Assembly (NCBI GenBank): GCA_963681965.1
Contig: OY820579.1
Location: forward strand, 3,968,001-4,032,000
DNA: 64,000 nucleotides
Origin: a bacterium
GTDB taxonomy: Bacteria; Electryoneota; JAOADG01
Direction: 5' to 3'
Made by a program: the position numbers and the translations under genes. This document shows, piece after piece, positions 12,395 through 37,408 of this stretch. The stretch's first letter is position 1. Every line of letters begins with the position of its first letter. The notes beneath the pieces were generated by a model that saw only the letters and a list, made by a program, of their open reading frames with translations, was not told the DNA's origin and made no database searches.

Positions 12395-12525
12395 CTCTTG
12401 AAAATTAGACTCGGTTATCGGCTTGACCAAACATGTACAGACAAGAGTGTCTGTACCTACAAAAGCTACCTGCGGGCGGATACGGGGATCCGCCCCTGCT
12501 ACCGATAACAACTAATTTTCAAGAG
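12395..12525. repeat. TIR-bounded, REP-containing dispersed element, copy A
   Basis: Perfect 14-bp TIR CTCTTGAAAATTAG/CTAATTTTCAAGAG. Encloses two GTAG-type hairpins (12435-12460 and 12474-12502). Right half matches copies B and C. Confidence 0.8.
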
Positions 12526-12785
12526 ATACTCGATAACCCTGAATATCGAGCCGATTCGATTGCATCGGAGCTTCCTCACCCCTACATTTAGCACGTTAGT
12601 GGCGTTCTGAAAGCCGTAAATCCCTTACTACCTATTCCGGTTTCTATGCCATCACAAATGCTGCATCCTTTCGACCCACCACCGCTCGATCCGTGCGGTG
12701 AAGTGATTGCTACCCCCGCTTTCTCCAGCTTGTTACCGACGCTACCACAATCATCGAATTTGTTACTTTTTCCGGGAGTATACGC

Positions 12786-20497: not shown

Positions 20498-20516
20498 GTT
20501 TTCGATTAGGAACAAC

Positions 20517-22463
20517 ATGAATCTCAATTTCTTCGACTGGCTCATCGTCATTATCTCGATTACGGGATTAATAGCGGTAGTCAATATCAGCAAGCGGTAT
20601 ATGCGCAGCGTTGCCGATTTTTTGTCGGCGGGTCGTTCGGCGGGGCGGTATCTGATCAGTGTCTCGCAAGGGATGTCGGCGCTCGGATCGATCACGATCG
20701 TCGGTATGTGGGAGATGAATTACATCGCGGGGTTCTCACTCCGCTGGTGGGAATTCACCATGGGCGTCGTATTGCTCATCATCACGGTATCGGGGTGGGT
20801 GATTTATCGCTTCCGGCAGACGCGCGCATTGACGATGGCGCAATTTTTCGAAATTCGCTATAGCCGGAATTTCCGGATCTTTGCCGGACTACTCGCATTC
20901 ACTTCGGGAATTGTTAATTTCGGCATCTTTCCCGCGGTTGGAGCACGATTCTTTATCTACTTCTGTGGCTTGCCGCAAACGTTTACGCTGCTGGGGTTGG
21001 CGATTCCGATGTTTCCCGCAGTGATGGCGATCTTTCTGGCGATTGCAATCTATTTTCTCTTTGCTGGTGGACAGATTGCCGTCATCATCACCGAATTTAT
21101 CCAGGGCATTTTCGTCAATACGGTGTTCATCATTATCGTGATCTACTTCCTGACTACCATTGACTGGAATCAAATTTTCATCGGACTGACCGCGGCACCA
21201 CCGGATGCATCGCTGATCAATCCCTACCATACGAGCAAGGTGAAGGATTTCAATCTTTGGTACTTCCTGATCGGCGTGGTCGGTGTGATCTACGGAAAGA
21301 TGTCGTGGCAAGGAACGCAAGGCTACAACTCATCGGCAAAGAGCGCGCACGAAGCGAAGATGGGCGAAGTGCTTGGCAATCTGCGCGACATTCCCAAATG
21401 GTTGATGTTGATCTTTGTGCCGATCGTAGCCTATACCGTGATGCACAATAAAGATTTCTCGGTTGTCGCACAGAGTGTAACCGGTATTCTGAACGGCGTC
21501 GATTCGAAAGCGCTGCAGACACAACTCACCGTGCCGCTCGTGCTATCGAAATTATTACCCTTCGGATTGATGGGTGCTCTCACGACGGTGATGCTGATGG
21601 CGACCATCGGCACGCACGACAGCTATCTCCATTCGTGGGGTAGCATCTTCATTCAAGATGTCATCATGCCGTTCCGCAAGAAAGCGTTCGAACCGGAACA
21701 ACACCTCCGTGTACTGCGACTGGCGATCCTCGGGGTCTGTATTTTCATCTTCTGTTTCAGTATCATCTTCAATCAGAGTGAATATATTTTCCTGTTCTTC
21801 GCGATAACCGGCGCGATTTTTACCGGTGGTAGCGGGGCTGTGATCATCGGTGGATTATACTGGAAACGCGGCACGACCGCAGCGGCGTGGAGCGCGCTGA
21901 TCACTGGTTCGGTGATTGCGGTCGGCGGAATTATTCTGCAGCAGATCGACAAGGATTTCCCGATCAACGGTCAGGAGTTTTGGGGTCTCGCAATGGGCTG
22001 CTCATCGATCGTCTATATCGTGGTTTCGCTACTGAATAAGAATAAAGCATTCGATATGGATCGATTGCTGCATCGCGGTCAGTATGCGATTCAGGGCGAA
22101 TTGAAAGTCGTGGACGAAGTTCCGGTGAAGGGGTGGAAGATGCTCGGCATGGGGCGCGAATTCACCCGTGGCGACAAATTGATTTACATCATCGCCTATG
22201 GCTGGGTGATTGCGTGGACGATCGCATTTCTGATCGGCACCTTCTTCAATCTGACCGGGACAGTGAGCGATTCCTCGTGGATGAGTTTCTGGAAGATCTT
22301 CCTGACGGTCAATGTGATTGCATCGATTATCATCATCATCTGGTTCTCGATCGGTGGAATGCGCGATTTGAAAGACATGTTGCATCGGTTACGCACGAAT
22401 ATCCGCAATCATCAGGACAGCGGTTTCGTCGATCGTCCCGGGAGCGAGGAGCCGAAATCATGA
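20517..22463 (+). CDS. Sodium:solute symporter (SSS family)
   Basis: DFLSAGRS, TMAQFFEIRYS, GLYWKRGT; many TM segments. Confidence 0.88.
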   Translation: MNLNFFDWLIVIISITGLIAVVNISKRYMRSVADFLSAGRSAGRYLISVSQGMSALGSITIVGMWEMNYIAGFSLRWWEFTMGVVLLIITVSGWVIYRFRQTRALTMAQFFEIRYSRNFRIFAGLLAFTSGIVNFGIFPAVGARFFIYFCGLPQTFTLLGLAIPMFPAVMAIFLAIAIYFLFAGGQIAVIITEFIQGIFVNTVFIIIVIYFLTTIDWNQIFIGLTAAPPDASLINPYHTSKVKDFNLWYFLIGVVGVIYGKMSWQGTQGYNSSAKSAHEAKMGEVLGNLRDIPKWLMLIFVPIVAYTVMHNKDFSVVAQSVTGILNGVDSKALQTQLTVPLVLSKLLPFGLMGALTTVMLMATIGTHDSYLHSWGSIFIQDVIMPFRKKAFEPEQHLRVLRLAILGVCIFIFCFSIIFNQSEYIFLFFAITGAIFTGGSGAVIIGGLYWKRGTTAAAWSALITGSVIAVGGIILQQIDKDFPINGQEFWGLAMGCSSIVYIVVSLLNKNKAFDMDRLLHRGQYAIQGELKVVDEVPVKGWKMLGMGREFTRGDKLIYIIAYGWVIAWTIAFLIGTFFNLTGTVSDSSWMSFWKIFLTVNVIASIIIIIWFSIGGMRDLKDMLHRLRTNIRNHQDSGFVDRPGSEEPKS

Positions 22464-23416
22464 AACGACACTCCGCGAATCCGATTATCACGCGCTCCGA
22501 TATTCCGAATATTCCACCCGATTTGATCGATGTAACGTCGGTTTTCAATCCCGGCGCGATTCAGGTGAATGGCGAAACAATTCTCATTTTACGCGTGCAG
22601 AATCGCGGACGAGAAACCTCGTTCGTCGTGGCACGCAGTTCCGATGGTATCCTCTTCCAATGTGCGAAGAAAGCGGTTACACTGCACGGCATCGAATCGG
22701 TAAACGAAACGATCTATCATTGCTACGATGCCCGGATTACACGGCTGGACGATACTTTCTACGTCATGTTTGCCATGGATATGGATCACGGTTGCAGTCT
22801 CGGGTTAGCGAAAACTGCTGATTTCGATCATTTCGAATTTCTCGGGATCGCTTCGACCGGCGATATTCGCAATGGTGTGATCTTCCCGGAAAAATTCGAT
22901 GGAAAATATCTGCGACTCGATCGTCCGAACGATCTTCAGCTCGATGGCGGACCGACTTCCGGCACGGTGATTTGTCTTTCGGAATCCGACGATCTGTTGC
23001 ACTGGCAACGCACCGCACACATCATGCAGGGGCGGTTCCATTATTGGGATGAATTGATTGGACCGGGCGCTGTACCGATTAAGACGCGCCACGGCTGGCT
23101 CTGTCTTTATCACGGAGTGGCGACACATTTCGGCAGTGCGAATATTTATCAGGCGGGTGTCTTCCTGCTCGACCTGCACGACCCGAGCAAATTGCTCGGG
23201 CGCAGCCGGTTCAATATTCTGGAACCACGCGAGTTGTACGAACTCGCTGGACAAGTACCGAATGTAGTGTTCCCGAGTGGCGCTGTCGTGCAATCGGTCG
23301 ATGCCGACGGTTTCGCGACAGACGATAGTGAAGTCTATGTGTACTATGGTGCAGCGGATACCTGTGTCGGGTTGGCGGTGACGACGGTAAGAATGTTAGT
23401 AGAAGCGACCATTTAA
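22460..23416 (+). CDS. GH130 beta-mannoside phosphorylase/hydrolase
   Basis: ATG 22460 overlaps the SSS stop. NPII, VFNPGA, YDARIT, RNGVIFPEK, YHGV, VPNVVFP, YYGAADT. Confidence 0.9.
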   Translation: MKRHSANPIITRSDIPNIPPDLIDVTSVFNPGAIQVNGETILILRVQNRGRETSFVVARSSDGILFQCAKKAVTLHGIESVNETIYHCYDARITRLDDTFYVMFAMDMDHGCSLGLAKTADFDHFEFLGIASTGDIRNGVIFPEKFDGKYLRLDRPNDLQLDGGPTSGTVICLSESDDLLHWQRTAHIMQGRFHYWDELIGPGAVPIKTRHGWLCLYHGVATHFGSANIYQAGVFLLDLHDPSKLLGRSRFNILEPRELYELAGQVPNVVFPSGAVVQSVDADGFATDDSEVYVYYGAADTCVGLAVTTVRMLVEATI

Positions 23417-23447
23417 GTATTTAGATAATAATAACAATCACTATTTT

Positions 23448-23470
23448 ATGAGATCATATTGTGATCTCAT
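23448..23470. promoter_or_regulatory. Perfect 9-bp inverted repeat, possible operator
   Basis: ATGAGATCA-tattg-TGATCTCAT in the AT-rich gap upstream of the LVIVD gene. Confidence 0.35.
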
Positions 23471-23515
23471 TCTATATCAGTTATTTTTTATTCTGTATTC
23501 CTATCTCCCACATCT

Positions 23516-25876
23516 ATGGCAATGTACACACTTGAATTGGAGTCGTCGATGCCAAAGAGAATCCTCTGTTTGATTAATACTTTCCTCATTTTGATCGTAA
23601 GCTTGTCGATCTTCGATTCGATGGTATTGGCTCAGGATAGTTCGGGCGTACGTTGTATTCAGCGAATAGTCAATAACAGGTCGGTTAACTTAATAGCTAG
23701 CAATGGCAATTATCTCTGTGCTTTAGTCAATAATCAAGTAAAGATTTTCGATATATCCATTCCGAACCACCCACACGAGATATCTTCGATTCCAATTATT
23801 GGTGACGTAAAAAAATTTATCTTAACATCGAACCGACTTTATCTTGCAAATGATTTCGATGGTATCCGGATTTACAGTCTTACCGATCCATATAACCCTG
23901 CATTGATTACTACCTATCGATTACCAGATACTGCGATAGACATGGCTCTTCAAAACGATCATTTGTATCTAAATATCCATGAACACGGTCTATTAATTAT
24001 CGACGTTGGAGATTCCCAGAATCTTAGATTGTTGGGTAGCTTGGATAGTATCAATTTTGCATATTTTGTGGTGTCAGGTAGATATCTTTATGGAGTTGGA
24101 TGCTGTCTTTGGACTTATGATATCTCAAATCCCGACAGTATACAGCTCATGTCGGAATATGAACTTCCCTACACTTGGGTTTTGGTATCCATCACAAAAG
24201 TCGGATCAAACGTCTATTTAGGGGGTCAAGGAACAGCTTGGTATACTTGTTTCGGCATCTTGATCGGCATCGATGTTTCCGATCCAACTAATCCTGTTGA
24301 GCGCGGTCGTTTTTATGAACCAGCTCAAGGCTCAAGAGAGCAATTGAATTCATATAGTAACATCAACCAAGTAACAAACATTGGAAATAACGTTGTCGTT
24401 TCGGCAGAAATATCCGAACGACAGTACAATGGTTCCTTCAGAACTTCCAATATTGTACAGATCTTGGATATTACAAATCCAGACAGCATCGAATCGAGTT
24501 GGGGAGTGACTTTATACTCCGACACGACATACTACCGGAGTAGAGCTGTTCGTGAGTTATCGGTAACCGAAAGCACTATCTATTGTGCCGAAGGCGAACT
24601 TGGACTCGCGAGTATTCCCACAAGAACAAATTCCTATTCTACGAGTGTACTCTCTTTTCAACCTCGATTGATCACTCACATCGGAAATTATCTCGTTGCT
24701 TCCACCAATAACCAAATCAGCATCTCCGATATCTCTGATCCGGCTCATGCAAGTTTGGATGCTCTCATCGATGTATCGGATTCGATCGAATTTTTGGGAT
24801 CCTTCAACAATACATTACTACTTGGAACGGCACATCGTGATTCTTTATCTGCGATAAATCATGAGATGGTGTTGTATAACTTATCCAACATCAATACACC
24901 GGTCCACCTGAGTAATTGTGAGGTTCCAGCACAAATACAGGATATCGCAATCGACGGCGCTTATGCATATGTTGCCACTGGTGATTCTGGAATGAAAATC
25001 GTAAATATTGCCAACCCACAATCGATACAGATTACTGGATCCATGCCGGTACCAACCGATCAGCTTGAAATCAGTGATCACTATTTATTCGCATTGAACA
25101 AGCATCAATTCCGGAGTTATCGATTGACGGATCCGATTCATCCCGAACTTATCAGCGAATTTTCGGATACGTCGCTGGTTTTTCGTAATCTTGCTGTGAT
25201 CGGCAACCGGCTCTATTATTGCGAGGCAAGTTCCATTTATCATCCCGACCAGAATTACTATAACTCTCAAGCGTTTATTAGAGAATTTAACATCTCCGAT
25301 CCAACCCATCTTGTTCCGATGCGAAGTTATATGTTGGCGGAGTATAATTCAGCCTATCACGCTTTTCTGAATGCCAGATTTCTTATCCCAGCGAGCACAC
25401 ACTTATTCTATCAATCCGATTTTTTGGGAACGATAAATATATTAGATCTTACCCGACCCGATAGCATCAGACGATGTGGTTATTATCATACAAACGGATA
25501 TGGTTCCACTGTGATTGGTAACAATATTTTCTTGACGAGAGATTATTCTATTGACCTCTTTGACTGTTCCCAAGCACTCGGCGTAGTCGATCACCGATCC
25601 GAATCTATTCCGACCACCTTCGCACTCAAACCGAATAACCCGAACCCTTTCAACGCCACAACTGAGATTCACTACACGATTCCAGCGACCGCAAAAGTCG
25701 AGTTAAAAGTATTCGATCTGACCGGGCGCGAGGTTGCAAAGTTAGTCGATTTCAATCAGAATCCGGGCGAGTACACTTACCATTTCGACGGCAAAGCGCT
25801 TGCCTCCGGCACCTATTTTGTGAGGTTGAAAGTAGGTGCTTTCATGCAAACGCAGAAAATAATTTTATTGAAGTAA
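23516..25876 (+). CDS. LVIVD-repeat secreted protein with T9SS type-A C-terminal sorting domain
   Basis: Repeated (I/V)xD(I/V)S(N/D)P units (GLLIIDVGD, GMKIVNIANP); C-terminal PNPFNA...SGTYFVRL...KIILLK. Start may instead be ATG 23549. Confidence 0.82.
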   Translation: MAMYTLELESSMPKRILCLINTFLILIVSLSIFDSMVLAQDSSGVRCIQRIVNNRSVNLIASNGNYLCALVNNQVKIFDISIPNHPHEISSIPIIGDVKKFILTSNRLYLANDFDGIRIYSLTDPYNPALITTYRLPDTAIDMALQNDHLYLNIHEHGLLIIDVGDSQNLRLLGSLDSINFAYFVVSGRYLYGVGCCLWTYDISNPDSIQLMSEYELPYTWVLVSITKVGSNVYLGGQGTAWYTCFGILIGIDVSDPTNPVERGRFYEPAQGSREQLNSYSNINQVTNIGNNVVVSAEISERQYNGSFRTSNIVQILDITNPDSIESSWGVTLYSDTTYYRSRAVRELSVTESTIYCAEGELGLASIPTRTNSYSTSVLSFQPRLITHIGNYLVASTNNQISISDISDPAHASLDALIDVSDSIEFLGSFNNTLLLGTAHRDSLSAINHEMVLYNLSNINTPVHLSNCEVPAQIQDIAIDGAYAYVATGDSGMKIVNIANPQSIQITGSMPVPTDQLEISDHYLFALNKHQFRSYRLTDPIHPELISEFSDTSLVFRNLAVIGNRLYYCEASSIYHPDQNYYNSQAFIREFNISDPTHLVPMRSYMLAEYNSAYHAFLNARFLIPASTHLFYQSDFLGTINILDLTRPDSIRRCGYYHTNGYGSTVIGNNIFLTRDYSIDLFDCSQALGVVDHRSESIPTTFALKPNNPNPFNATTEIHYTIPATAKVELKVFDLTGREVAKLVDFNQNPGEYTYHFDGKALASGTYFVRLKVGAFMQTQKIILLK

Positions 25877-26266: not shown

Positions 26267-26298
26267 GAAAAACGGGAGACTGCGATGAGCCTCCCGTT
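26267..26298 (-). terminator. Hairpin between convergent genes, probable terminator of the Mgl operon
   Basis: AACGGGAG-12nt-CTCCCGTT with an adjacent A-run (T-run on the minus strand). Confidence 0.55.
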
Positions 26299-26355: not shown

Positions 26356-27609
26356 TTAATCGTCGATAAAAAACTGGCGCGACGATTTCATCACTTTATC
26401 CCACAAGAATGTACCACGCTCGATTCCGAAAATGAATAGATAATTGTCGATGTGGACGCGTGCCGACTTCCACGAAGTCAGTTGCGCCACTTTATTTACC
26501 CAATTATCGTACTCCGCCTCATTGCGCGTTCGCAACGCCATCATCAACGCTTTTCGATTCGTCTGATCGAGGAATGTCTCTTTCCACGTCCCCTTCGGTT
26601 CGAAGACTGCGCCTACTTTCGGTGCTGCCGGTGCTGCCGGAGCAGTTGGTGCTTGTGGTGGAGTTGCCGCTACCGGAGCGGGTTTCGGTGGTTCCGGCAC
26701 GGGTGCTGCCGGTTTCGGAGCCATGGCTGGAGGTGGTGTCATCGCCGGTGGCTTCACTGCCGGAGTTGCCACTGGTGCCGGTCGCGGTGGTGGCGGTGGC
26801 GGCGGAACCGGACGTGTTGGTGTGGAAACACCTAATCCAAACGCATCATCTTCATCGATCTTGGCTGGCTCTGGCGGCTTCGCTGTCATCGGTGGCGGTG
26901 TCTGCGCTGGTGCCGGTCGTGCCGCTGGTGCAGGTGCCTGTGCAGGTGCTGCCGGCATTACCGATTCCAGCGGTTCTTCGGTCGTCGTGCTCAGGTCGTG
27001 GAACGAACCACCCGAAATCATCTTGCGGGTGACAACGTAATCTTTCCGCAATGCATTATAGCGCGCCATAATCAGCGCGAGATCGTCGACACCGATCGCA
27101 TTCATTCCGAGCGATTCTTCCAACCGCACCACATCGGCAAGCACTTTCACTTCCGACATATTCAACACGGTGGCGATCACACCGGGTTCCAGCGTCGTTC
27201 CACTGAAACCAAGACCAGTCGCGCGTTCGAAGACCTGTTTTGCCAAATCGATCGAATCGGCTTCCAACCCGCGCAAATCGATCGGGTTGTCCGACCAGGT
27301 TGTACGCACTTGATCGAATGACTTTCCAACCGCTTCCTGCAATTCATTTTGCGAAAAGGTGAACGCATTGAGAATCGCTTCGACGACTGCTTCACGCGTT
27401 TTGGCATCGACCAATGCAACATCGAATTGCGGGAGTGTCAGCAAGCGATCGATTTCGGCTTCTACCGACTCTTTCGCTTTCGCCGACAGTCGGTCGCGCA
27501 CCTCAGGCGACTTGTTCCATTGCGTCAATTCGCGGTACGGAAGACTCGCTCTCCCTTTCAGTAAATCGTCGATCCAGCCGGCAGGTACGGTTTGTTGTGA
27601 CACGCCCAT
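26356..27609 (-). CDS. Hypothetical protein: helical N-domain, Pro/Ala-rich linker, small helical C-domain
   Basis: GGAGG RBS upstream; last gene of the Mgl operon; long PAPA/PPPP-type linker. Confidence 0.8.
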   Translation of the reverse strand: MGVSQQTVPAGWIDDLLKGRASLPYRELTQWNKSPEVRDRLSAKAKESVEAEIDRLLTLPQFDVALVDAKTREAVVEAILNAFTFSQNELQEAVGKSFDQVRTTWSDNPIDLRGLEADSIDLAKQVFERATGLGFSGTTLEPGVIATVLNMSEVKVLADVVRLEESLGMNAIGVDDLALIMARYNALRKDYVVTRKMISGGSFHDLSTTTEEPLESVMPAAPAQAPAPAARPAPAQTPPPMTAKPPEPAKIDEDDAFGLGVSTPTRPVPPPPPPPRPAPVATPAVKPPAMTPPPAMAPKPAAPVPEPPKPAPVAATPPQAPTAPAAPAAPKVGAVFEPKGTWKETFLDQTNRKALMMALRTRNEAEYDNWVNKVAQLTSWKSARVHIDNYLFIFGIERGTFLWDKVMKSSRQFFIDD

Positions 27610-27631
27610 AGATTTGTCCTCCTAATCGCTA

Positions 27632-29560
27632 CTACGAATTCGGATGTTTAGTTTGATATTTATCGCGAATTGATTCTAATTGAAGTATGTCTAGATGATC
27701 GACGCCGACATAAGCCACGATCTCGACCCCTTGCGCGACTTCCTTCTCATTGACCCCTTTCAGGATCTGCATCACGCATTCGATCGGAACTTGCGTCTCC
27801 GGCATTCCCATCTCGAGAATGAATCCTTCCAACCGGCGGAATTGTCGGATCACCAATTCCCAGCGGCGTTTGATCGGCATTCCGTCGATATATTCCATAA
27901 AAGACGATTTGAGATTGGCATCGGAATAACCGGTCTGAATGGTTTGCGAAAGAATCGTCCGAAATTCCGGATCGATCTGATCGCGGGTAATAATTTCGTG
28001 CAATGCAGCTTCGATCGATTGATAGTTCGTTAATCGATTGCAGAACGCTGTCAATGTCGGTAATGGTTCCAGAACCAGTCCGATTTCCAATGCAATCGCG
28101 CGCCGAACGAGTTCCATCCATTCCCGTTTCGTTACCATCCGCTTCTTCGCCAGATGATTGCGCAACTGCATCAGGATCGATCTGCTCTCTTCGTCATGCA
28201 GATCGAAGGCATGCGTCAATTTTCCGATCGTGCCGTCGACATCTTCGGTCATCATCAAAACGACCCAGCTCCCAATTCGCGGAGGTATTTTCGCCATCGG
28301 AATTTTATCGATCGGAAGCGATTCGACTTTATCCTGCCAACTCTCCTTGGCAAGGTCGTGCATCTTGACAAATAGCTCGGCAATTCGCTCGGTCGTTCGA
28401 AAATCCTGCATCTCCTCGCGATGTTCGCGTACTTCCGGTTTATTTGCCGGACGTTCCGCTACTGCCGGCGGGGGGGTACGCGGTTGCATAACCGGTTGCG
28501 GTGCCGGTTGAGCTGCGGGTTGCGGCATCGGATGCACCGGCGGCGGAGTGGGAGCGGAAACCGGCATCGGTTGGCGCGCGGTTTTCGATTGAATCGTTTC
28601 CGCCGACAACGGCGCTGCGAACGAGAAGCGTTTGGATTCCGAAACTGGTTCCTGCAATTCCTGCGGAGCAATTTCATCGAGTGCCGAAAAGGTCTCGATC
28701 GGCGGTGTCGTCACTTCGGGTTTTCGATACGGCGTGTTGATCGACGTCTTCTTGATACTGGTAACCGGTTCGATGAATTCGATGTCGTTGTTTTCGATGT
28801 CGTCTTCACCGAGTAATTCATCGGAAGCACTCGCTTCGTCCGATACGCGCGCCGCATCGATGACCAGCGTTTGCCATTGCTTGCCGATCGTCTTTTGGGT
28901 GCGGACATACGGACCGACCGTAAATTTTCCGCCGGGCCATTGAAACATTTCGTAGAAGGCATCGACACCGACATTCGCAACCGTTTTCGCGTGGATGATG
29001 ATACCATTGTCGATTGCGATGATTCCTTCATTGCGACCGGAATTCACTTTCAACGTAGATTTTCGACCGCTGATTCCGAGTAGCTGAATCACCTCCGCCA
29101 TGTGCAGTTGTCCGACAATCCCCTCGAATCCACTCTTATCCTTATCGGAAAGAATGTTGGTTACTTCGCGTCGCAGCAATTCGAAATCGAATGGTTTCTC
29201 GATATAGTGTACTGCGCCGAGTCCGTAACTTCGGGTACGCAACTCGGGGCTGGAGAATCCGGTCATGACGATGAATTTGATATTGGGATGTTCTTGCTGC
29301 ACCCGCACCATTAAATCCAAACCGGACAGATTCGGCATTCGGATATCGGTGATAATTACTTCGACTTCAGGATTTTCCCGAATGATACTCTCGACTTCCA
29401 ACGGGTCGGTAGAATAAAGCGTCTCGATATTTTCGTCGATCGAGTCGAATAGTCCCCGCAACGCGAGTACGATATCCTCCTCGTCGTCGACGACGATAAT
29501 TTTATGGAGGGGAACGTCTTGATCGTTCGGGTCCGGAATTTTTCTCAGTCGATTTGGCAT
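27632..29560 (-). CDS. Response regulator: REC + DUF4388/PATAN-like + Pro-rich linker + helical C-domain
   Basis: IIVVDD...IITDIRMP...MTG...EKPF (intact REC); GFEGIVGQLHMAEVIQL...GIIIHA...GVDAFYEMFQWPGGKF (DUF4388 pattern); TAATG overlap with mglB. Confidence 0.85.
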   Translation of the reverse strand: MPNRLRKIPDPNDQDVPLHKIIVVDDEEDIVLALRGLFDSIDENIETLYSTDPLEVESIIRENPEVEVIITDIRMPNLSGLDLMVRVQQEHPNIKFIVMTGFSSPELRTRSYGLGAVHYIEKPFDFELLRREVTNILSDKDKSGFEGIVGQLHMAEVIQLLGISGRKSTLKVNSGRNEGIIAIDNGIIIHAKTVANVGVDAFYEMFQWPGGKFTVGPYVRTQKTIGKQWQTLVIDAARVSDEASASDELLGEDDIENNDIEFIEPVTSIKKTSINTPYRKPEVTTPPIETFSALDEIAPQELQEPVSESKRFSFAAPLSAETIQSKTARQPMPVSAPTPPPVHPMPQPAAQPAPQPVMQPRTPPPAVAERPANKPEVREHREEMQDFRTTERIAELFVKMHDLAKESWQDKVESLPIDKIPMAKIPPRIGSWVVLMMTEDVDGTIGKLTHAFDLHDEESRSILMQLRNHLAKKRMVTKREWMELVRRAIALEIGLVLEPLPTLTAFCNRLTNYQSIEAALHEIITRDQIDPEFRTILSQTIQTGYSDANLKSSFMEYIDGMPIKRRWELVIRQFRRLEGFILEMGMPETQVPIECVMQILKGVNEKEVAQGVEIVAYVGVDHLDILQLESIRDKYQTKHPNS

Positions 29561-30057
29561 TAAAGATCCAGCGGCTCGTCACCGCCCCCCCGTATGGCGT
29601 CGACAATATCCTTCCACTTTCCCTTCTGAGGATCGATATCGGCGTCAGCCTGTTGACTTCGTTCAGTAATGATTTCGCCGATTTGCAGCGCAATCTTCTC
29701 CGAATACATTTTCACCATTCCCAATGTGGTTGCTTCATTGAAGATCGCAACCAGCAGATGATCGGTAGTCAATTTTACGACAAATATTCCGTTCTTTTCC
29801 CCTTTCCAGAACGTCGATTCGAAATTCGTTTCGCCGGCAACTTTCGCCGTTTCCTTGGCGGCGCCGAACGAAGCGGCGATCAGGGTTGCCAATCCGATCG
29901 GATCGGTCAGCTCGCTCGAACCGACTCGGGCATAGATATAGCCATCCTCACCGATCAACAGCGCCGTCGAAGCTTGTGCCTCTTCGATCAGTACCGTGAG
30001 ACAGGTGGTTATGACTACAAGAGTCGATTCGTCGATGGTCGTGTCGCGGATAATCAC
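29560..30057 (-). CDS. mglB: Roadblock/LC7 protein, MglB-like GTPase-activating protein
   Basis: ALLIGEDG, LATLIAASFGAAKETAKVAGE, LLVAIFNEATTLGMVK; directly downstream of mglA. Confidence 0.8.
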   Translation of the reverse strand: MIIRDTTIDESTLVVITTCLTVLIEEAQASTALLIGEDGYIYARVGSSELTDPIGLATLIAASFGAAKETAKVAGETNFESTFWKGEKNGIFVVKLTTDHLLVAIFNEATTLGMVKMYSEKIALQIGEIITERSQQADADIDPQKGKWKDIVDAIRGGGDEPLDL

Positions 30058-30059
30058 GG

Positions 30060-30827
30060 TTACTTGCCCTTACCGAATAACCGACCAAGCCATGCGAACA
30101 TGCCGGGTTTCTTAGCCGGAGCTGCCGCTTTTTCTTCCGGTTTGGCTGCCGGTGCACTCTTCGGTTTTCCGATCGTGGTCGATGGTGTCGGCGGCACTTC
30201 GGGTGCTGGTGCCGATGCTGCAGCAGCATCGACTTCGGCGAAAATTGTTCGTTTGAAATCTTCAATCACACAGGTAGTGATCGCTTTCAACGTATCGAAT
30301 ACCCCTTGTCCGGTCAGCGCTACCGCCTCGACAAACGGCAATCCCTTCGAATTCAATTCGATATTAAGAATATCGAGTGGAATTACGCCTGGGATGTCAC
30401 GCTTGTTGAATTGAAACACGAGTGGAATCGTATCGGGATTCATTTTCAGTTCGCGCAAGTTCGCCATCAAATTTTCGAGACTCTCTTTGTTCTCGGCGAT
30501 TTTTCCATGCTGCGAATCGGCAACGAAAACGATGCCGTCTGCACCCTGCAACACGAGTTTCCGCGACTGGTTGTAATAAACCTGACCCGGAACGGTGAAG
30601 AGTTGCATGCGCAACGAAAATCCCTTCACTTTTCCGATTTCCAGTGGAAGTAAGTCGAAGAACAACGTGCGATCCTGCTGGGTTGCAACTGAAGACAATT
30701 CGCCTCGTTTATCGGCGGGTAGCATTCGATGAATCGTCTGAAGATTCGTGGTTTTACCGCATAGCCCCGGTCCGTAATAAACGATTTTACATTCTAATTC
30801 GCGTTTTGCATAATTGATGGTTGCCAT
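30060..30827 (-). CDS. mglA: MglA small Ras-like GTPase with C-terminal extension
   Basis: INYAKRELECKIVYYGPGLCGKTTNL, DRTLFFD, TVPGQ, FNKRD, EAVA; ATG 30827 follows an AGAGG RBS. Confidence 0.93.
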   Translation of the reverse strand: MATINYAKRELECKIVYYGPGLCGKTTNLQTIHRMLPADKRGELSSVATQQDRTLFFDLLPLEIGKVKGFSLRMQLFTVPGQVYYNQSRKLVLQGADGIVFVADSQHGKIAENKESLENLMANLRELKMNPDTIPLVFQFNKRDIPGVIPLDILNIELNSKGLPFVEAVALTGQGVFDTLKAITTCVIEDFKRTIFAEVDAAAASAPAPEVPPTPSTTIGKPKSAPAAKPEEKAAAPAKKPGMFAWLGRLFGKGK

Positions 30828-30858
30828 ATCGGATCCTCTGCAAGATCGGTTGAGTTGC

Positions 30859-31212
30859 TTACTCTCGTGAATAATTGCCAATACTATCCAATCGCGTTTG
30901 AAGCGAACCGGCAAGTGCCAGTAGCTGACCGTAATTGGCGTTGGGTTCGGTTATTGCCGTTAGCAGCACCGAACCGCCATCGACGGTCACGACCGTTCGA
31001 TCGTCCAACGTCAGCAGCATCGTGCGGTAGTTGTCGTCGTCGATCTGCGCCAATGCGGTTCGCAAATCGTTGGCATAATTCGCCAGCCGCGGACCCAAGT
31101 GGTCGGTCTTCGATTCCGGAAAATGCTCGATCACAATTCCATCCCGGTCGATTAACTCGACTTCAAGGATGCCGTCCGCTGTAATAAAACTATTGAAAAA
31201 AGAATTCTTCAT
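30859..31212 (-). CDS. Roadblock/LC7 protein (second copy)
   Basis: DGILEVELIDRDGIVI...LLTAITEPNANYGQL roadblock pattern. Confidence 0.72.
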   Translation of the reverse strand: MKNSFFNSFITADGILEVELIDRDGIVIEHFPESKTDHLGPRLANYANDLRTALAQIDDDNYRTMLLTLDDRTVVTVDGGSVLLTAITEPNANYGQLLALAGSLQTRLDSIGNYSRE

Positions 31213-31221
31213 ACCCTTAAC

Positions 31222-31596
31222 TCATAATTTGATGAGTGGTAGTAAAAAACGTGCCGTCTGCTGGCTCAGTTTCCAGGAATGATCCACTTCCGTATTCCAG
31301 CAATAGACAATCAGGTATTCGCGATAAACCAAACAATGCAATTGCGTCGATGGAAGCGATACCGAGAATTGATCGAACGCTTTCTCGGAATGCTCACTCG
31401 CGGTTCGCAATACCCGTAAGTACCGGATCGCTTGTCCGGCGACCGTCAGCTGTTCCTGACGCTCCATCGATCCGCATTGAAGAACCGGAAGTCCTACCGC
31501 CGAAACGATCATCACATGACGCATTCCCGGTTTTCCGGTAATCGTCGCAAGCACCGATTCCAGCGATTTGGGCGGAAAGAGGCGCCAGTACCACAT
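31222..31596 (-). CDS. Divergent roadblock/LC7-like protein (third copy)
   Basis: LESVLATITGKPGMRHVMIVSAVGLPVL; ATG 31596 lies 1 nt after the upstream stop. Confidence 0.6.
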   Translation of the reverse strand: MWYWRLFPPKSLESVLATITGKPGMRHVMIVSAVGLPVLQCGSMERQEQLTVAGQAIRYLRVLRTASEHSEKAFDQFSVSLPSTQLHCLVYREYLIVYCWNTEVDHSWKLSQQTARFLLPLIKL

Positions 31597-31597
31597 T

Positions 31598-32467
31598 TTA
31601 TAAGCCTTCCAGGAAATTGGTAAAGCTGCTGACTTCTTGTTCTGCCAATTGCGCAATGTCTTCAGCCTTCGTCAGCAATCCTTCCTTGTTCATCAGATGC
31701 AATCGCTCGATCGCTTTCAACCATTCGTCACCGGTTAACGATTCGCCGCGAAGTTTCGCTTCCACATTGATCGCGTGAACATAACCGCCTAATCCGCGAT
31801 CGGTCAACATTTCCGCGATATCTGTCGATATAAATTTTCCGTCCCACTCTTTATCGCGTGCAAGCAACGTGGAAATGTCGCGGACAATTTCCTTGATTCC
31901 ATTCAATGGTTGCGCTGCATACGATTTCTCGACGGCATTCGAAATCGATACTTGAAATTCCCGTCGCGAGAGTTTCAGTTGCGGTGAATCCTGCAAGAAC
32001 ATCGCGACTTGACGAAATGCCGGCACTGCCAGTCGTTCCCAATTCGACAAATATTTCAAAATGACATTCAGCGCATTTGCCGCCAATTCTCGCTTGATCA
32101 ACGTGTTTTCGCGGCGATCGAACAGCAGCTTGGTTGTCTCTTCAACCGGAGTCCAAGTAAACCGATAATAGAAATTGTAGGCTTCCCGATAAATTTTCTG
32201 CACATCTTCGAATTTCAACGGCCACGGTCGTGTCAGATGGTACTGAAGCTGCGCCATCGACTCTTGCGGACTGTCGGAATTCATCATGATCTTCACGGGA
32301 CCGAGTGCAATCTCGCCACCGAACAGTGGAGAAAACAGGATATACAGATAACTGCGGATAGTGCCGTGTGTTCGGTTGACAACGTCTTTCAGTTCCTGCT
32401 TCCCATCCTGTTGAATAATCGATCGGGTATCCTGCAGGGAAATATGTTCAATAATGCCGCTATCCAT
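31598..32467 (-). CDS. Hypothetical all-helical protein
   Basis: 289 aa, GGAG RBS, tightly packed in the operon. Confidence 0.75.
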   Translation of the reverse strand: MDSGIIEHISLQDTRSIIQQDGKQELKDVVNRTHGTIRSYLYILFSPLFGGEIALGPVKIMMNSDSPQESMAQLQYHLTRPWPLKFEDVQKIYREAYNFYYRFTWTPVEETTKLLFDRRENTLIKRELAANALNVILKYLSNWERLAVPAFRQVAMFLQDSPQLKLSRREFQVSISNAVEKSYAAQPLNGIKEIVRDISTLLARDKEWDGKFISTDIAEMLTDRGLGGYVHAINVEAKLRGESLTGDEWLKAIERLHLMNKEGLLTKAEDIAQLAEQEVSSFTNFLEGL

Positions 32468-32476
32468 AAATTCTCC

Positions 32477-32833
32477 TTACTGACGGTGCTTGCGATTTCG
32501 TTCGATTTCGAGTTGTTTTTCGATTTTCGAATGCAAATAACCGAGTTCGATCGGTCGATTATATTTGGCGGTAATCCAATCACCATTGGTGCGAATCGCC
32601 ACAAGAATACTCTGCTCACCTTCGAGATATACCGCACAATCGGCTTTTTCCGGAAACAACGGGTGATGACCGAATGCCGCACAAACTTTTCCAATCCCTT
32701 TGCTGTCAGTCGCTGCCGCATCGGCTGCGGAAACAACCGTACTCCCCTCGCAACCGGTCAACGTCTCGAGATACTTTCTCCAGAAAGTCACTCGGGGATT
32801 GGGATTGCGATTTTCAGGTTCGTCACTCATCAT
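32477..32833 (-). CDS. Hypothetical protein (118 aa)
   Basis: ATG 32833 follows the kinase stop and the ORF fills the operon gap. Confidence 0.6.
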   Translation of the reverse strand: MMSDEPENRNPNPRVTFWRKYLETLTGCEGSTVVSAADAAATDSKGIGKVCAAFGHHPLFPEKADCAVYLEGEQSILVAIRTNGDWITAKYNRPIELGYLHSKIEKQLEIERNRKHRQ

Positions 32834-32846
32834 CGACTCGGAAACA

Positions 32847-34754
32847 CTATTCTTCAATATTGATCGGGATACTTGGTAACAGGAACGAAATACGATTCCA
32901 TGGCTCGTTGCGATAGGGAACAATCACTCCGCCATTCTTCTGAATCAAGCGTTGCACGGCGAACAAACCGATGTCGGTACCGCCTGCTTCGGCACGGAAG
33001 AATGGGTCGAACAAGCGCGCGAGAATTTCCGGCGACGACTTGGGACCGTTGTCGTTGAACCGGATGACGGTACCACCGCCTAAATAATTCTGGCGAATCG
33101 ATTCCAATGTAAAGACTTGCTCCGGTTCGGTCAATGCCAAACCTTCCAACGGTGCCGCTTCGATCAGGATTTCACCACCCTGATCGACACTGTCGATCGC
33201 ATGAACGAGCAGATTCAACATCGTCTGTAAAATCTGGTCGGGATTGACAAATACTTTGATATCTTGCGCTGTTTCGACATACTTCACGGAAATCTTTTTC
33301 GCGGCGATTTTACTCGACATTAATTCGAATGTTTGCGTGTGTATGCCCGATACCGAGATCAATTCGGGTTGTTCACGACTGACCCGGATTGCGGCAAAGA
33401 ACGACTGGAACAGCCGATTCAAGCGATGCACCTGACTGTTGGTTCGGTGCAGCATCTCGACCGCGGGATGATCCTTCTCCAATTTCAATTCGATCAATTG
33501 CGTCATGCCGGAAATACTAGCCAGCGGATTGCGAATATCGTGCGCGAGCGCAGATGCCAAAATTTCCATCGAAGCAAGTTGTTCCAACCGGATGCGTTCT
33601 TCCTGCATGTGCTTGATCAGCGAGATATCGCGGAAATGAATCACCGTACCGACTTTACGACCCAAGCGATTGGTCCGCGTAGTGACCGAATAGCCGATCT
33701 GAATTCGATTATAATTGATATCCACCGACAATTCGTATGTCTGCCACGGTTTATCTTCGCTCGCATGCTGCATAATCTCTTGGGCGATATTGTCGCCAAA
33801 CAGCGAACCGAGCGTCGATCCGAACACGACATCGTTATTCAAACCGATAATTTCGCGTGCCGCTTTATTCATGAATTCGAGACGACCGTTCAGATCGACG
33901 GTGATGACACCGGAATACAGCGAATCTAGAATACTGCGGCTGAACATGTGCACAGCTTCTTCCAATCGGTGCAATTGCGTAAGGTCGTGAAATACGATCG
34001 TGCGACCGCAAACGGAGCCATTTTCGTTCCGTAATTCGGTCAGCGAACATTCGATTACCATCGGACCGCGCGGTGTTTCGATATGCAGCTCGCGCGAAAG
34101 TAGAAAACTGGTGATTGGGGAATTCAGAATCAACTCTTCCGCTTCTTTTCCGAAGAGCTTGTGGAGCGGAGTATTCTGAACTTCAGTCGACTCTAGTCCG
34201 AGAGAGATAATTGCCGAACGATTGACAAAATAAACGCGACCGTTTTCCAGCACCGAGAGAATACCGATGCCGATCGAATCGATAATACTTTTTGCGTTGG
34301 TGGAGATATCGAAGGCGATCGGTTCATCCTGGGTAGAGGAGTCTGCCGTAGCCAGATCGGTTTTTCGGTCGGAGGTCGATTCCAGAGAATTGATGATATC
34401 AAGCAGCAGTTTCATCGATACGGGTCGCCGGAGCAGAAAAGAAGCACCGGTAAGATTCAAAAATTCGCGGGAATTGCGTTCGCTGTCTTCGGTAATCGCA
34501 ATCCAACTGACTGCTCCATCCGAGGGGAGACCGACTTTTTTCCGGTAAGCCCGGAGAATTTCGGTGTAGCTCATCTCGGAGGGGGGATCGTTTAAAACTA
34601 GCAGCGAAAATCGATGGCGGTTGGAAATTCCTTTCAACATCGTACCGGGAGTAGGGAAAGCACTAACGCTCCGCCCGGCATGTTCGAGGGAGCGTGCATA
34701 TTTTTCCCGTAGTTTCTCGTCTGGTTCGACTAATACAATTGAATCGATTTTCAC
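32847..34754 (-). CDS. Atypical sensor histidine kinase: pseudo-REC + 2 PAS + HisKA + degenerate HATPase
   Basis: H-box LAHDIRNPL; two PAS-like segments; altered N/G boxes NLLVHA, DNGPK, GTDIG; no TM segments seen. Confidence 0.85.
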   Translation of the reverse strand: MKIDSIVLVEPDEKLREKYARSLEHAGRSVSAFPTPGTMLKGISNRHRFSLLVLNDPPSEMSYTEILRAYRKKVGLPSDGAVSWIAITEDSERNSREFLNLTGASFLLRRPVSMKLLLDIINSLESTSDRKTDLATADSSTQDEPIAFDISTNAKSIIDSIGIGILSVLENGRVYFVNRSAIISLGLESTEVQNTPLHKLFGKEAEELILNSPITSFLLSRELHIETPRGPMVIECSLTELRNENGSVCGRTIVFHDLTQLHRLEEAVHMFSRSILDSLYSGVITVDLNGRLEFMNKAAREIIGLNNDVVFGSTLGSLFGDNIAQEIMQHASEDKPWQTYELSVDINYNRIQIGYSVTTRTNRLGRKVGTVIHFRDISLIKHMQEERIRLEQLASMEILASALAHDIRNPLASISGMTQLIELKLEKDHPAVEMLHRTNSQVHRLNRLFQSFFAAIRVSREQPELISVSGIHTQTFELMSSKIAAKKISVKYVETAQDIKVFVNPDQILQTMLNLLVHAIDSVDQGGEILIEAAPLEGLALTEPEQVFTLESIRQNYLGGGTVIRFNDNGPKSSPEILARLFDPFFRAEAGGTDIGLFAVQRLIQKNGGVIVPYRNEPWNRISFLLPSIPINIEE

Positions 34755-35376
34755 CGACTAACCGCCTATTCTGCGAAGACTTAAAAAGAACAAAATGATA
34801 CTTAGCGAAAAACTGAAAGACTAAATTTGCAGTAAGAAGTACGGAACAATGAAGCGAAGCGAGCACTCTCAAGTCGTATGAACGCAATATATTTGTTATC
34901 CAACGCCCTAGACAAGCTTTTTATCGACATTTATGAACTAGAATTGACCACCATCACTTCATTTCACTCGGATACATCAGCTAACTGATCGTTTTCAAAC
35001 CGACCCGGATTCTCATTGAAACGGTAGCGATTTTGTAAAACATTATAAAATTGCTTCAATCGGATGCAAACTTCAACTGAATTGTGTATTTTAAGATCGA
35101 AAGCAATATCCAACCGGCTGACTGATAAATTGGTATTTTGTAAAATCACACGTCGTTAGAAACCTAACATCAATTTAATCAATCCTCGAAGAGGAATAAC
35201 AACACACAGATCCTGATAATAAACGATTTTATTTATTTTCGATTTATTAGTTATACGATAAAAATAAAATATCTTTCGGGAAAAAGTAGCGACGACTAGC
35301 GTAAGTAAATTAATTTATTTAATTTCATTAAGATGCATTTATTTATCGGTGTGTTTTGAAGGAATAAGGAAGTATC

Positions 35377-36261
35377 GTGTCTGAATCCGAATCAGCAGCC
35401 AATCGTCTTGATCAAATCTCCAATCTGCCCACTATTCCCGGAATTCTGGTTGAAATCCTCGGATCGTTGCAGGATCCCAATATTGGCTTCGATTCCTTAA
35501 AAAAAATTGTCTACAAAGATCCGCCACTCGCCGCACGGATTTTACGGATTGCCAATAGCGCTTATTTCGGAAGATCGAATCCGACCAATTCACTGGAGAC
35601 GGCTTTTTTAACGATCGGCATCAATGAATTAATCATGATTATCTCTAGCATTGGTGTCGTCAATTCGTTTGCGCAATTCGGCAATCGCTCGTTCGATCGT
35701 CGCATCCTTTGGAAACACAGCTTAATGACCGGTCTGGTTGCCCGTTATATCAGTCAAAAATTGAATCTCGGGCAGCGAACCAATAACGACGAATTCATCG
35801 CCGGACTGTTGCACGATCTGGGTCATATCATCATTTCGCACTATTTTCCAAAAGAATTCGTTCGCATTCAGGATAGTGCGAAACAAGGACTCGATCCTTT
35901 GGAAATCGAACGCTCAGAACTTGGCAACGACCATTCGGAGATCTCGGCGTTGATTGCTACCCGTTGGCGGTTCTCCGAGACGTTAGTAAATATTCTGCGG
36001 TTCCACCACACTCCTGAGCAGTTCCCCGGCGACCGAACACTGGTACGATTGATCCACTTTTCCGATCGCATTTGCAGTTGGCGACCGAGCGATGAAAAAC
36101 CGATCCCGGTAGAAAATTTGATACTGGATCCGGAATTATTGAAAATAGCATTTCCCGATGCGATACCTGAACGCCTCATTCAGTATTCATTGGCGATTCG
36201 GGAATTGCCTAAAGAAATGGAACGATTTAACGATTTAGCATCGACGATGGATATCTCGTAA
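35377..36261 (+). CDS. Stand-alone HDOD-domain protein
   Basis: LPTIP, DPPLAARILRIANSAYF, WKHS, AGLLHDLG, HSEIS, RFHH. Confidence 0.88.
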   Translation: MSESESAANRLDQISNLPTIPGILVEILGSLQDPNIGFDSLKKIVYKDPPLAARILRIANSAYFGRSNPTNSLETAFLTIGINELIMIISSIGVVNSFAQFGNRSFDRRILWKHSLMTGLVARYISQKLNLGQRTNNDEFIAGLLHDLGHIIISHYFPKEFVRIQDSAKQGLDPLEIERSELGNDHSEISALIATRWRFSETLVNILRFHHTPEQFPGDRTLVRLIHFSDRICSWRPSDEKPIPVENLILDPELLKIAFPDAIPERLIQYSLAIRELPKEMERFNDLASTMDIS

Positions 36262-36298
36262 CACGAATTCCATCTCGAGCAAATCAATTGGGTGAAAT

Positions 36299-37408
36299 AT
36301 GAATGGCACTCCCGCACGAATACTAGTAGTTGACGATGAACCGAATTTGCGCGATTTGCTCGAATCATTCTTAGTACAATTGGGTTACGAAGTTGAAACT
36401 GCTAGAGACGGTATCGAAGCGTTAGCCAAGATCGACCTCGATTTCGATTTAATGTTCCTCGATCTGATCATGCCCGGCATGGATGGCTACGAAGTCATTC
36501 AACGCGTCCGCGAAAATCCCAGCGGGATCGACCTGCCGATTATTGTGTGTACCGGTTTAACCGGTTCCGATCATCGATTGCAAGCGATCGAAATGGGTGC
36601 CAACGATATCGTGTTGAAGCCATTCGATTTCACCGAGATCCGCATCCGAGCAGCCGTACAACTCCGCGTCAAATCCGCTTTCAACGACTTGCGCCGAAAG
36701 AAAGACGATCTCGAAGCAGTAGTAACGAAACGAACGCAAGCCCTCCGCAAATCGCTGGACGACGTCGTCAATGCCGAACGGAAAGTTCGCGAAGCCTATA
36801 TCGAATCAATCTATCGACTGGTCATTGCGACGGAATATTCCGATTCCAACACCGGCTTTCATATTCAGCGGATGAGCAAATACAGTGCGCTGATCGGTCG
36901 CACTGTCGGGCTTTCGCCGGGTGACGTTGAAACCATACTCCACGCCAGCCCGATGCACGATATTGGAAAGATTGGTACTCCACAGGAAATCCTCTCGAAG
37001 CCGGGCAAACTTACCGATTCCGAGCGAAGAGTGATTCAACAGCACACGATGATCGGTTCCCAGATCCTCATTAATTCATCGGCGGCATTGCTGCAAGCCG
37101 GTTCGGAAATCGCTTTGAGTCACCACGAACGGTGGGATGGTAAAGGATACCCGCATCGTCTAGCCGGCGAAGAAATTCCGGTATTTGCACGAATTAGCGC
37201 AGTAGCCGACGTATTCGATGCACTGACGACCGAACGTCCCTATAAACCGGCAATCTCCAACGATGCCGCACTGATGCTGATGAAAAACGAACGAGGACAC
37301 CACTTCGATCCGGTCATGGTCGATGCCTTTCTGGACAATTTCGATGAAGTCGAGCATATTCAACGAACGGTTATGAACAATATTTCACCGATATTTATGT
37401 TCGAATAA
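36299..37408 (+). CDS. REC + HD-GYP cyclic-dinucleotide phosphodiesterase (RpfG-like)
   Basis: ILVVDD, FLDLIMP, KPF; MHDIGKIG, HHERWDGKGYP, VADVFDAL, RPYK. Confidence 0.92.
   Translation: MNGTPARILVVDDEPNLRDLLESFLVQLGYEVETARDGIEALAKIDLDFDLMFLDLIMPGMDGYEVIQRVRENPSGIDLPIIVCTGLTGSDHRLQAIEMGANDIVLKPFDFTEIRIRAAVQLRVKSAFNDLRRKKDDLEAVVTKRTQALRKSLDDVVNAERKVREAYIESIYRLVIATEYSDSNTGFHIQRMSKYSALIGRTVGLSPGDVETILHASPMHDIGKIGTPQEILSKPGKLTDSERRVIQQHTMIGSQILINSSAALLQAGSEIALSHHERWDGKGYPHRLAGEEIPVFARISAVADVFDALTTERPYKPAISNDAALMLMKNERGHHFDPVMVDAFLDNFDEVEHIQRTVMNNISPIFMFE

Follow-up and report, generated by a model that had tools for sequence, protein, structure and literature searches.

We analysed a 64,000-nucleotide stretch of an Electryoneota genome (contig OY820579.1, positions 3,968,001 to 4,032,000; hereafter the window) and find that nine genes at 26356-34754, numbered g1 to g9 from upstream to downstream, form a real and conserved operon around the small GTPase MglA. 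MglA is the textbook example of a Ras-like polarity switch in bacteria, portrayed as small, soluble and served by a single GTPase-activating protein (GAP). The operon class represented here departs from that picture: its MglA likely brings a membrane anchor of its own, the mglA gene precedes that of the GAP, and three further Roadblock proteins come with it; within this phylum, three of the operon's proteins also contain a helical domain that belongs to no known family. We tentatively read the whole as a membrane-leashed MglA switch that would act on the type IV pilus motor through a PATAN domain, with a lineage-specific two-component input, a reading in which our confidence falls a little short of even. 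The genes and domains are as follows, each with the evidence for its assignment.

32847..34754, minus strand: g1, sensor histidine kinase, 635 amino acids (Pfam).
32477..32833, minus strand: g2, Roadblock-fold protein, 118 amino acids (AlphaFold2 model, fold searches, hhalign).
31598..32467, minus strand: g3, all-helical protein, 289 amino acids, a stand-alone g3-like domain (AlphaFold2 model).
31222..31596, minus strand: g4, Roadblock protein, 124 amino acids (family profile match).
30859..31212, minus strand: g5, Roadblock protein, 117 amino acids, directly upstream of mglA (Pfam).
30249..30827, minus strand: g6, MglA G domain, residues 1-193 (alignment to solved Myxococcus xanthus MglA).
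30060..30248, minus strand: g6, MglA tail, residues 194-255 and stop (translation; the last 14 codons are 30063-30104).
29560..30057, minus strand: g7, MglB, 165 amino acids, downstream of mglA (Pfam, solved MglB chains).
29162..29500, minus strand: g8, receiver domain, residues 21-133 (Pfam Response_reg).
28832..29122, minus strand: g8, PATAN/DUF4388 domain, residues 147-243 (Pfam DUF4388).
27632..28330, minus strand: g8, C-terminal g3-like helical domain, approximately residues 411-642, after a Pro-rich linker (hhalign, hmmsearch).
26356..27609, minus strand: g9, 417 amino acids (hhalign to the g3 profile).

In the open reading frame (ORF) listing and its translations, these positions are filled by nine co-oriented minus-strand ORFs. 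With internal ATG starts inferred for three genes (g2 at 32833, g4 at 31596 and MglA at 30827), the spacings from g1 to g9 are 13, 9, 1, 9, 31 and 2 nucleotides, a 1-nucleotide overlap and 22 nucleotides. A preliminary description made from the DNA letters had seen nine tightly packed co-oriented genes with one overlap, and the chosen starts agree (gaps of 1-31 nucleotides). Five of the nine have a Pfam family (g1, g5, g6, g7 and g8), and for g2, g3, g4 and g9 no family exceeds its cut-off in Pfam or NCBIfam. Together with solved-structure matches, the Pfam hits uphold the identities first proposed for the PAS kinase, MglA, MglB and the REC-DUF4388 regulator. Codon-usage scores of eight genes lie within the range of long ORFs of the same genome; g4 scores low, at 0.016 where the 5th percentile is 0.075, its own frame still being the best. 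The translations of MglA, g8 and g9 all contain Pro-rich linkers.

Conservation was followed in 79 species genomes of the phylum, spanning nine families. A tailed MglA (one with a C-terminal extension, described below) is encoded in 13 of the 79, all in families f1-f4, and the g3 profile likewise matches 13 of the 79 (7 strong full-length matches, 2 partial at contig ends). Counted where a relative's locus is readable, g5 and g4 are each present in 11/12, g2 in 10/11, MglB in 11/11, g8 in 9/10, g3 in 6/12, g9 in 6/9 and the kinase g1 in 2/11. Eight of the nine genes, all but the kinase, are found again in unchanged order in other families of the phylum, the order being kept across four families; most profiles were built from the same 12 loci, and loci L103-L106, left out of profile building, show the same order. 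One of these, L106, on a contig from the same genus, reads kinase-g2-g3 before the contig ends. Because the order recurs in 12 loci of other genomes, the arrangement is not a product of chance, and conservation of the accessory genes next to mglA in relatives, proposed at the outset as the check, is what we find. Loci come in two forms, one with g3 and g9 and another (family f2) that has neither and encodes an MglB of 490-577 amino acids (L018 2147-3619, L020 5210-6796 and L104 6446-8179). In the L104 MglB sequence, an ordinary Roadblock domain leads into a very acidic, Glu-rich tail several hundred residues long.

The window's genome is a single contig of 4.24 Mb with the module at 3.994-4.003 Mb, and it encodes one MglA and one PATAN protein, with g5 and g7 as the only Pfam-level Roadblock matches. 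These counts bear out the proposal of a self-contained MglA module in a non-myxobacterial lineage, and its placement as like the Fibrobacterota–Chlorobiota–Bacteroidota (FCB) group is backed by type IX secretion sorting domains nearby.

Residues 1-193 of g6 are colinear with residues 1-193 of the solved M. xanthus MglA (E 1.3e-66), in an alignment that takes in the DRTLFFD and TVPGQ stretches, and g6 also passes the Pfam Arf model (25.0 bits, cut-off 22.3). The P-loop, R53, T78-V-P-G-Q82 and NKRD are conserved; we take R53 to be the intrinsic arginine, and Q82 the catalytic glutamine, of an MglA-type GTPase. Our results show g6 to be a bona fide group-1-type MglA, and threonine (Thr78) in place of the DxxG aspartate is given as the MglA signature in the portion of PMC3000849 available to us.

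Instead of ending as a single-domain soluble MglA of ~195 residues, g6 runs to 255 amino acids, the additional 62 residues forming a Pro/Ala-rich linker that ends in GMFAWLGRLFGKGK, a MinD-like, putatively membrane-targeting motif. Escherichia coli MinD terminates in ...KKGFLKRLFGG, and tails of FCB-group relatives end in GFLKRLFGNK and GFFKRLFGLK. The MinD C-terminal helix is an amphipathic membrane-targeting sequence of which one copy is too weak for stable attachment, according to the accessible part of PMC8155659. On the strength of the tail sequence, tethering of MglA to the membrane is likely. In four Planctomycetota contigs from metagenome-assembled genomes (MAGs; L026, L036, L044 and L077), the MglA tail ends in a hydrophobic, transmembrane-like ~19-mer and not in a MinD-like motif; with such an end, these MglAs would be tail-anchored small GTPases. 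We found no description of a membrane-anchored or tailed MglA in the open-access library searched.

The tail goes with gene order. We compared 91 MglAs (the window's, those of 10 loci of the phylum, and the best 80 of at least 596 matches in GTDB species genomes): all 23 with mglB downstream have tails of 48-450 residues, and of the 55 whose only neighbouring Roadblock gene lies upstream, 54 have tails of at most 28, the exception being cut by a contig end. Every module-type MglA of the phylum is tailed. One relative has, besides its tailed module, a canonical mglB-mglA pair (L021, G009:C4, 6654-7736) whose MglA is untailed at 193 amino acids and which lies beside another PATAN-type protein. 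On a quick maximum-likelihood IQ-TREE tree with two very long branches (L022 and L021), the tailed/short label changes 3 times, against a mean of 26.6 after shuffling (0 of 500 shuffles as low), and the tailed MglAs of Fibrobacterota form a separate group. The pattern LF[GKR] within the last 10 residues, a motif chosen after the sequences had been seen, occurs in 12 of 32 tailed MglAs, 0 of 59 short ones and 11 of 1844 long frames of the window's genome.

Four of the nine proteins are shown to be Roadblock-fold proteins, on evidence that differs from one to the next: Pfam for g5 and g7, a profile for g4, and a model with fold searches and hhalign for g2. g5 passes both Robl_LC7 (27.0 bits, cut-off 23) and MAPKK1_Int (31.4, cut-off 25), and its family aligns with the Roadblock gene that precedes tailed mglA in other phyla (hhalign 97.5 %, E 7.6e-12). 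g7, which passes Robl_LC7 (29.6 bits, cut-off 23) and matches solved MglB chains (E 3e-11), is shown to be an MglB-type Roadblock protein; it scores 57.3 bits with the NCBIfam MglB (Thermus-type) equivalog, under that model's cut-off of 200. g4 is a divergent member of a ~133-amino-acid family and has no Pfam match. Its family profile (A3) finds the dynein Roadblock LC7b over its full length among PDB sequences (E 1.4e-6), with 8 further Roadblock chains at E<=0.003, and the family aligns with the Roadblock domain of an Ignavibacteriota/Zixibacteria protein termed X-Rb (hhalign 92.4 %, E 5.3e-7).

The fourth, g2, is a divergent member of a ~154-amino-acid family found at the same position in relatives, and its family profile has no match among PDB sequences. 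The AlphaFold2 model (predicted local distance difference test, pLDDT, 77.6) has the topology a-b-a-b-b-b-a, departing from the Roadblock pattern a-b-b-a-b-b-b(-a) at the second strand, which is modelled as a short helix in a low-pLDDT region. The top Foldseek matches are all Roadblock, MP1-p14 or Ragulator/LAMTOR chains (probability 1.0, template modelling score (TM) ~0.5, E ~3e-3). Independently of Foldseek, VIA-align places an Asgard Roadblock first (Z 9.0, root mean square deviation 3.6, 98 aligned), then a Streptomyces Roadblock (7.9) and M. xanthus MglB (7.6), and hhalign joins the g2 family to a Roadblock profile from other phyla (95.8 %, E 7.7e-9). Two-sequence comparisons had been weak (18 % for the g2 pair against the 154-residue family, 71 % for the g4 pair against the 133-residue family); larger alignments settled both. 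The preliminary description was right to call g4 and g5 roadblocks, the former by its family profile even with no Pfam match, but its three roadblock proteins are in fact four (g2, g4, g5 and g7), since the 118-residue protein it listed as unknown is one of them.

The operon also contains a recurring helical domain. The AlphaFold2 model of g3 (pLDDT 84.8, predicted TM 0.80) is all-helical with six short strands and has no clear solved relative: the best Foldseek matches are EF-hand proteins (E 0.04-0.3, TM ~0.2), and the best VIA-align match is to an unrelated helical domain (Z 7.4). Aligned with its neighbours, the g3 profile matches the C-terminal ~240 residues of the g8 family (hhalign 97.8 %, E 1.3e-12 over 253 columns, and hmmsearch domain matches) and the N-terminal ~200 residues of the g9 family (67 %, E 5.2e-5, 197 columns). 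By these profile alignments, the g3 and g8 C-terminal regions are clear homologues and the g9 N-terminus is probably a g3-like domain. The remainder of g9, which has no Pfam match even at E 5, consists of a Pro-rich middle (~215-335, after the probable g3-like domain at ~5-204) and a conserved C-terminal domain of ~85 amino acids of no recognised kind.

The domain is rare. Among 1.84 billion representative sequences, the g3 profile finds only 42 clusters at E<=1e-3 and 19 at 1e-30, comprising proteins of g3 size, proteins of 420-520 amino acids matched at the N-terminus and proteins of 553-679 amino acids matched at the C-terminus. A homologue search with the single g3 sequence returned 3 proteins, the profile reaching further; a protein atlas search was uninformative for g3 and returned nothing but unnamed clusters for g9, and no description of a g3-like domain was found in the open-access library searched. 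The helical unknowns first proposed as the module's own scaffolds are not unrelated to one another. A complex prediction of the MglA G domain with g3 scored 0.14 against a mark of 0.32, which speaks neither for nor against a contact.

Two proteins supply two-component parts. g1 is soluble, with two PAS domains, HisKA and HATPase_c by Pfam; its N-terminal 130 residues give a sub-threshold, full-length Response_reg alignment (E 0.12, 13 bits), which we read as a degenerate receiver-like domain. g8 has a Response_reg domain (70.9 bits), whose acidic pocket and acceptor aspartate were read by eye in the translation, and a DUF4388/PATAN domain (52.2 bits, cut-off 25) that is the sole DUF4388 match in the whole genome. 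The receiver precedes PATAN in g8, the reverse of the PatA-type order. Both of the relatives' loci with a kinase (L013 and L106, among 11 with a readable upstream side) belong to the window's own family; the kinase is therefore a family-specific input, and two-component input cannot be counted as part of the core module, as had been supposed.

The link to pili comes from outside the phylum. Six MAG loci, three from Zixibacteria (L027, L031 and L062), two from Ignavibacteriota (L040 and L066) and one unassigned (L038), carry a homologous array in the order ComEC, PATAN, small protein, TPR-Roadblock, second extended Roadblock, Roadblock, tailed MglA, MglB, PilB; by sequence, ComEC was not detected in L038, nor the small protein in L038 and L066. 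PilB directly follows MglB in all six, and PilT and PilC come next in each of the five that reach far enough. The Roadblock and PATAN families of the array match g2, g4, g5 and g8 at 91-97 % hhalign probability. In the part of a preprint available to us (10.1101/2021.06.11.447907), the Synechocystis PATAN domain is an output domain that binds PilB1 and the PilC N-terminus, and its authors note that genes for MglA/MglB homologues regularly occur close to PATAN genes. In the window's genome, PilD, PilC, PilB, secretin, PilO, PilM, PilT and a pilin-type protein are encoded at 0.355-0.376 Mb, far from the module; the PilB gene there, at 357848-359554, includes an N-terminal MshEN region. That no pilus genes lie in the window, as initially observed, is correct; the output is nonetheless not wholly a blank, as the preliminary description had it, given the contiguity of the homologous array with pilB-pilT-pilC in two other phyla.

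Two observations stand beside these. At a distance of ~200 kb from the module (G000:C1, ~3782316-3798366), the genome has another set of PilB/GspE-, PilT- and PilC/GspF-like genes. In Gemmatimonadota-labelled or unassigned MAGs (L030, L032-L034, L042, L043 and L061), short canonical MglAs are flanked by PATAN and TPR-Roadblock-like proteins, so the PATAN/Roadblock expansion is not limited to tailed MglA.

The mechanism that we favour would run as follows. The flexible tail of MglA, with its MinD-like terminal helix, would hold the protein close to the inner membrane; as one such helix binds weakly, stable membrane binding probably needs clustering. MglB dimers would act as the GAP that turns MglA off, and the three extra Roadblock proteins may pair into additional dimers that place or modulate either the GAP or MglA, in the manner of Myxococcus MglC. 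The g3-like domains of g3, g8 and g9 could join these parts into one assembly. In the window's family, the soluble PAS kinase g1 would phosphorylate the g8 receiver, and the g8 PATAN domain would then engage the type IV pilus extension motor (PilB/PilC), setting where or when pili form.

Several points weigh against this scheme, beginning with the fact that we infer its binding, GAP and phosphotransfer steps. Besides the after-the-fact choice of LF[GKR], the helical hydrophobic moment of the tail end is not exceptional, being reached by 12 of 200 shuffles for the window and 127 of 200 for L040. A rule of at least four hydrophobic residues with a net charge of at least +2 is unspecific, passing 19 of 32 tailed MglAs and 22 of 59 short ones; on the latter count this crude rule was dropped as a tail-end criterion. 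Nor does any pilus gene adjoin the module in the window or in the 12 loci of relatives, and PilB or PilT lies within the fetched flanks of only 8 of 32 tailed-MglA loci. The PilT family exceeds its cut-off in 78 of the 79 phylum genomes against 13 with a tailed MglA; pili therefore do not need the module, and co-occurrence with PilT is uninformative. Locus L016 keeps g3, MglA, MglB, g8 and g9 and has g2, g4 and g5 nowhere in the locus.

The absence of adjoining pil genes throughout the phylum also favours an alternative in which the same membrane-leashed switch serves another target (type IX secretion or gliding, polysaccharide export, division-site choice or pole identity) and not pili. Its other support is that the module has type IX secretion substrates on its flanks, both here and in relatives, that the module is patchy in a phylum with near-universal pili (78/79), and that Myxococcus MglA also drives non-pilus gliding, as far as the source excerpts go. 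We nevertheless regard this alternative, the main rival, as rather unlikely, for the homologous array has just one direct genomic link, to pilB-pilT-pilC, the experimentally known PATAN partners met in the partial sources are PilB1 and PilC only, and no other machinery recurs beside the module in the loci examined.

A second alternative would have nothing positioned at all: in a conservon-like G-protein unit, the GTPase and Roadblocks would regulate the kinase and response regulator, and thence second-messenger turnover by neighbouring HDOD and REC-HD-GYP proteins. Kinase, Roadblocks and small GTPase do share one operon, as in the actinobacterial conservon (PMC4316618, in the part available), and an HDOD gene adjoins the module in the window (35377-36261) and in L014, with REC-HD-GYP next to it in the window. 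These points are offset by the confinement of the kinase to the window's own family (2 of 11 readable loci), of HDOD adjacency to two loci, the lack of any DUF742/CvnC-type protein among the nine, and a GTPase that is group-1 MglA-like and not of conservon type; we hold this alternative to be very improbable. That the genes are chance neighbours or a decaying remnant, with g2 and g4 not real genes, was already disfavoured and is barely credible: the weak codon-usage score of g4 and the bare pairwise alignment of g2 with its own-family counterpart are outweighed by an order conserved across four families (including loci outside profile building), by frames that are all open, and by the family profiles and Roadblock-fold support for g2 and g4.

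Two regulatory signals were noted around the operon.

35042..35070, minus strand: promoter-like site upstream of g1 (10/12 hexamer matches; consensus only, may not be this lineage's promoter type).
26271..26298, minus strand: terminator-like hairpin just past g9 (11-base-pair stem with 6 G-C pairs and a T-rich tail; consensus match only).

Elsewhere in the window, 35377-37408 on the plus strand, divergent from the operon, encodes an HDOD protein and a REC-HD-GYP (RpfG-like) protein; L014 has an HDOD gene (12120-13124) after its g9-like gene, and no other locus examined shows HDOD. At 16296-25876 (plus strand) lies a mannoside-type utilisation cluster, with GH92, an endonuclease/exonuclease/phosphatase-family protein, a sodium:solute symporter and GH130; next comes an LVIVD beta-propeller protein that carries a type IX secretion sorting domain. 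The minus strand holds a 2791-residue protein (39924-48299) with a C25 peptidase propeptide and catalytic domain, many ASH/HYDIN-type Ig-like repeats and DUF1573, and a resistance-nodulation-division efflux set (50079-55964) of an AcrB-family pump, a CusB/HlyD-type adaptor with C-terminal heavy-metal-binding repeats and an outer-membrane factor.

If the membrane-leashed reading is true, MglA works at the membrane in many little-studied phyla, as Ras, Rab and Rag do in eukaryotes. The complete genome containing the window may come from a culturable organism, which would make this a compact nine-gene set in which to study coupling of a G protein to pili through Roadblock multimers and a PATAN adaptor.

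Set against known systems, the operon shares with the MglA-MglB systems of Myxococcus and Thermus the colinear G domain (R53, T78 and Q82), an MglB-type partner and extra Roadblock paralogues like MglC. g8, with its receiver and Pro-rich linker, resembles RomR, presumably likewise built of a receiver and a Pro-rich linker, with a C-terminus rich in Pro and Glu; neither RomX nor RomY has an identified counterpart here, the RomX and RomR sequences lying outside the comparison. The differences are that mglB precedes mglA in those systems and follows it here, and that here MglA has a tail with a putative membrane-targeting end, the Roadblock proteins number four and the receiver protein also contains PATAN and a helical domain that fits no known family. 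The MglA tail end resembles the MinD membrane-targeting sequence, but sits behind a disordered linker on a GTPase of another superfamily.

MglA/MglB/PATAN neighbourhoods have been tabulated before. In the accessible parts of Wuichet and Sogaard-Andersen 2014 (PMC4316618), group 1 and 5 MglA genes are occasionally near PATAN genes, the neighbourhoods of Table S2 include <PATAN<MglA<MglB<MglB in Chloroflexus, Fibrobacter succinogenes has a 313-residue MglA with mglB downstream, and Makarova et al. 2006 is cited for MglA/MglB/PATAN neighbourhoods. In those parts, the table gives MglB/PATAN neighbours and GTPase length only; a tail, a membrane motif, the g3-like domain and the eight-gene order are not discussed there. 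The candidate system put forward at first as undescribed is thus undescribed as a particular gene set, and not as a kind of neighbourhood, some with two MglB genes being already on record. We found no paper in the open-access library searched on the eight-gene set or on an MglA-PATAN operon of such make-up.

The Ignavibacteriota/Zixibacteria arrays are similar in having three Roadblock-domain proteins, then a tailed MglA with a MinD-like end, then MglB, plus a PATAN protein. They differ in being joined to pilus motor genes and ComEC, in the N-terminal extensions of two Roadblocks (one of them TPR), and in lacking the g3-like domain, g9 and a receiver on the PATAN protein. Cyanobacterial PatA-type regulators (PixG, PixE and LsiR) likewise combine PATAN and a receiver in one protein; g8 reverses their order, adds a Pro-rich linker and a g3-like domain, and is encoded with MglA and not with a chemotaxis-type system. 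The actinobacterial conservon (CvnA-CvnD), so far as the available excerpt describes it, shares the histidine kinase, Roadblock protein and MglA-family GTPase in one operon, whereas the operon here has no CvnC/DUF742, its kinase is not a conserved member and its GTPase is group-1-like.

With the eukaryotic Rag-Ragulator, the likeness would be of several Roadblock-fold subunits and a small GTPase acting at a membrane: g5 passes MAPKK1_Int (LAMTOR3), and the g2 model matches MP1-p14/Ragulator. Here the anchor is on the GTPase and not on a LAMTOR1-like subunit, the GTPase is MglA and not Rag, and the comparison is of genes and models, not of an assembly. We offer as a quite unlikely idea that the four Roadblocks stack as heterodimers under the leashed MglA, held by the new helical domain in three subunits, and form a bacterial counterpart of Rag-Ragulator, a G-protein signalling hub on the membrane with exchangeable inputs (the kinase here) and outputs (pili elsewhere). 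The operon is of a known kind, MglA/MglB/PATAN; distinctive are its four Roadblocks, a likely self-anchoring MglA encoded ahead of its GAP, the helical domain in triplicate and, in the window's family, the PAS kinase input.

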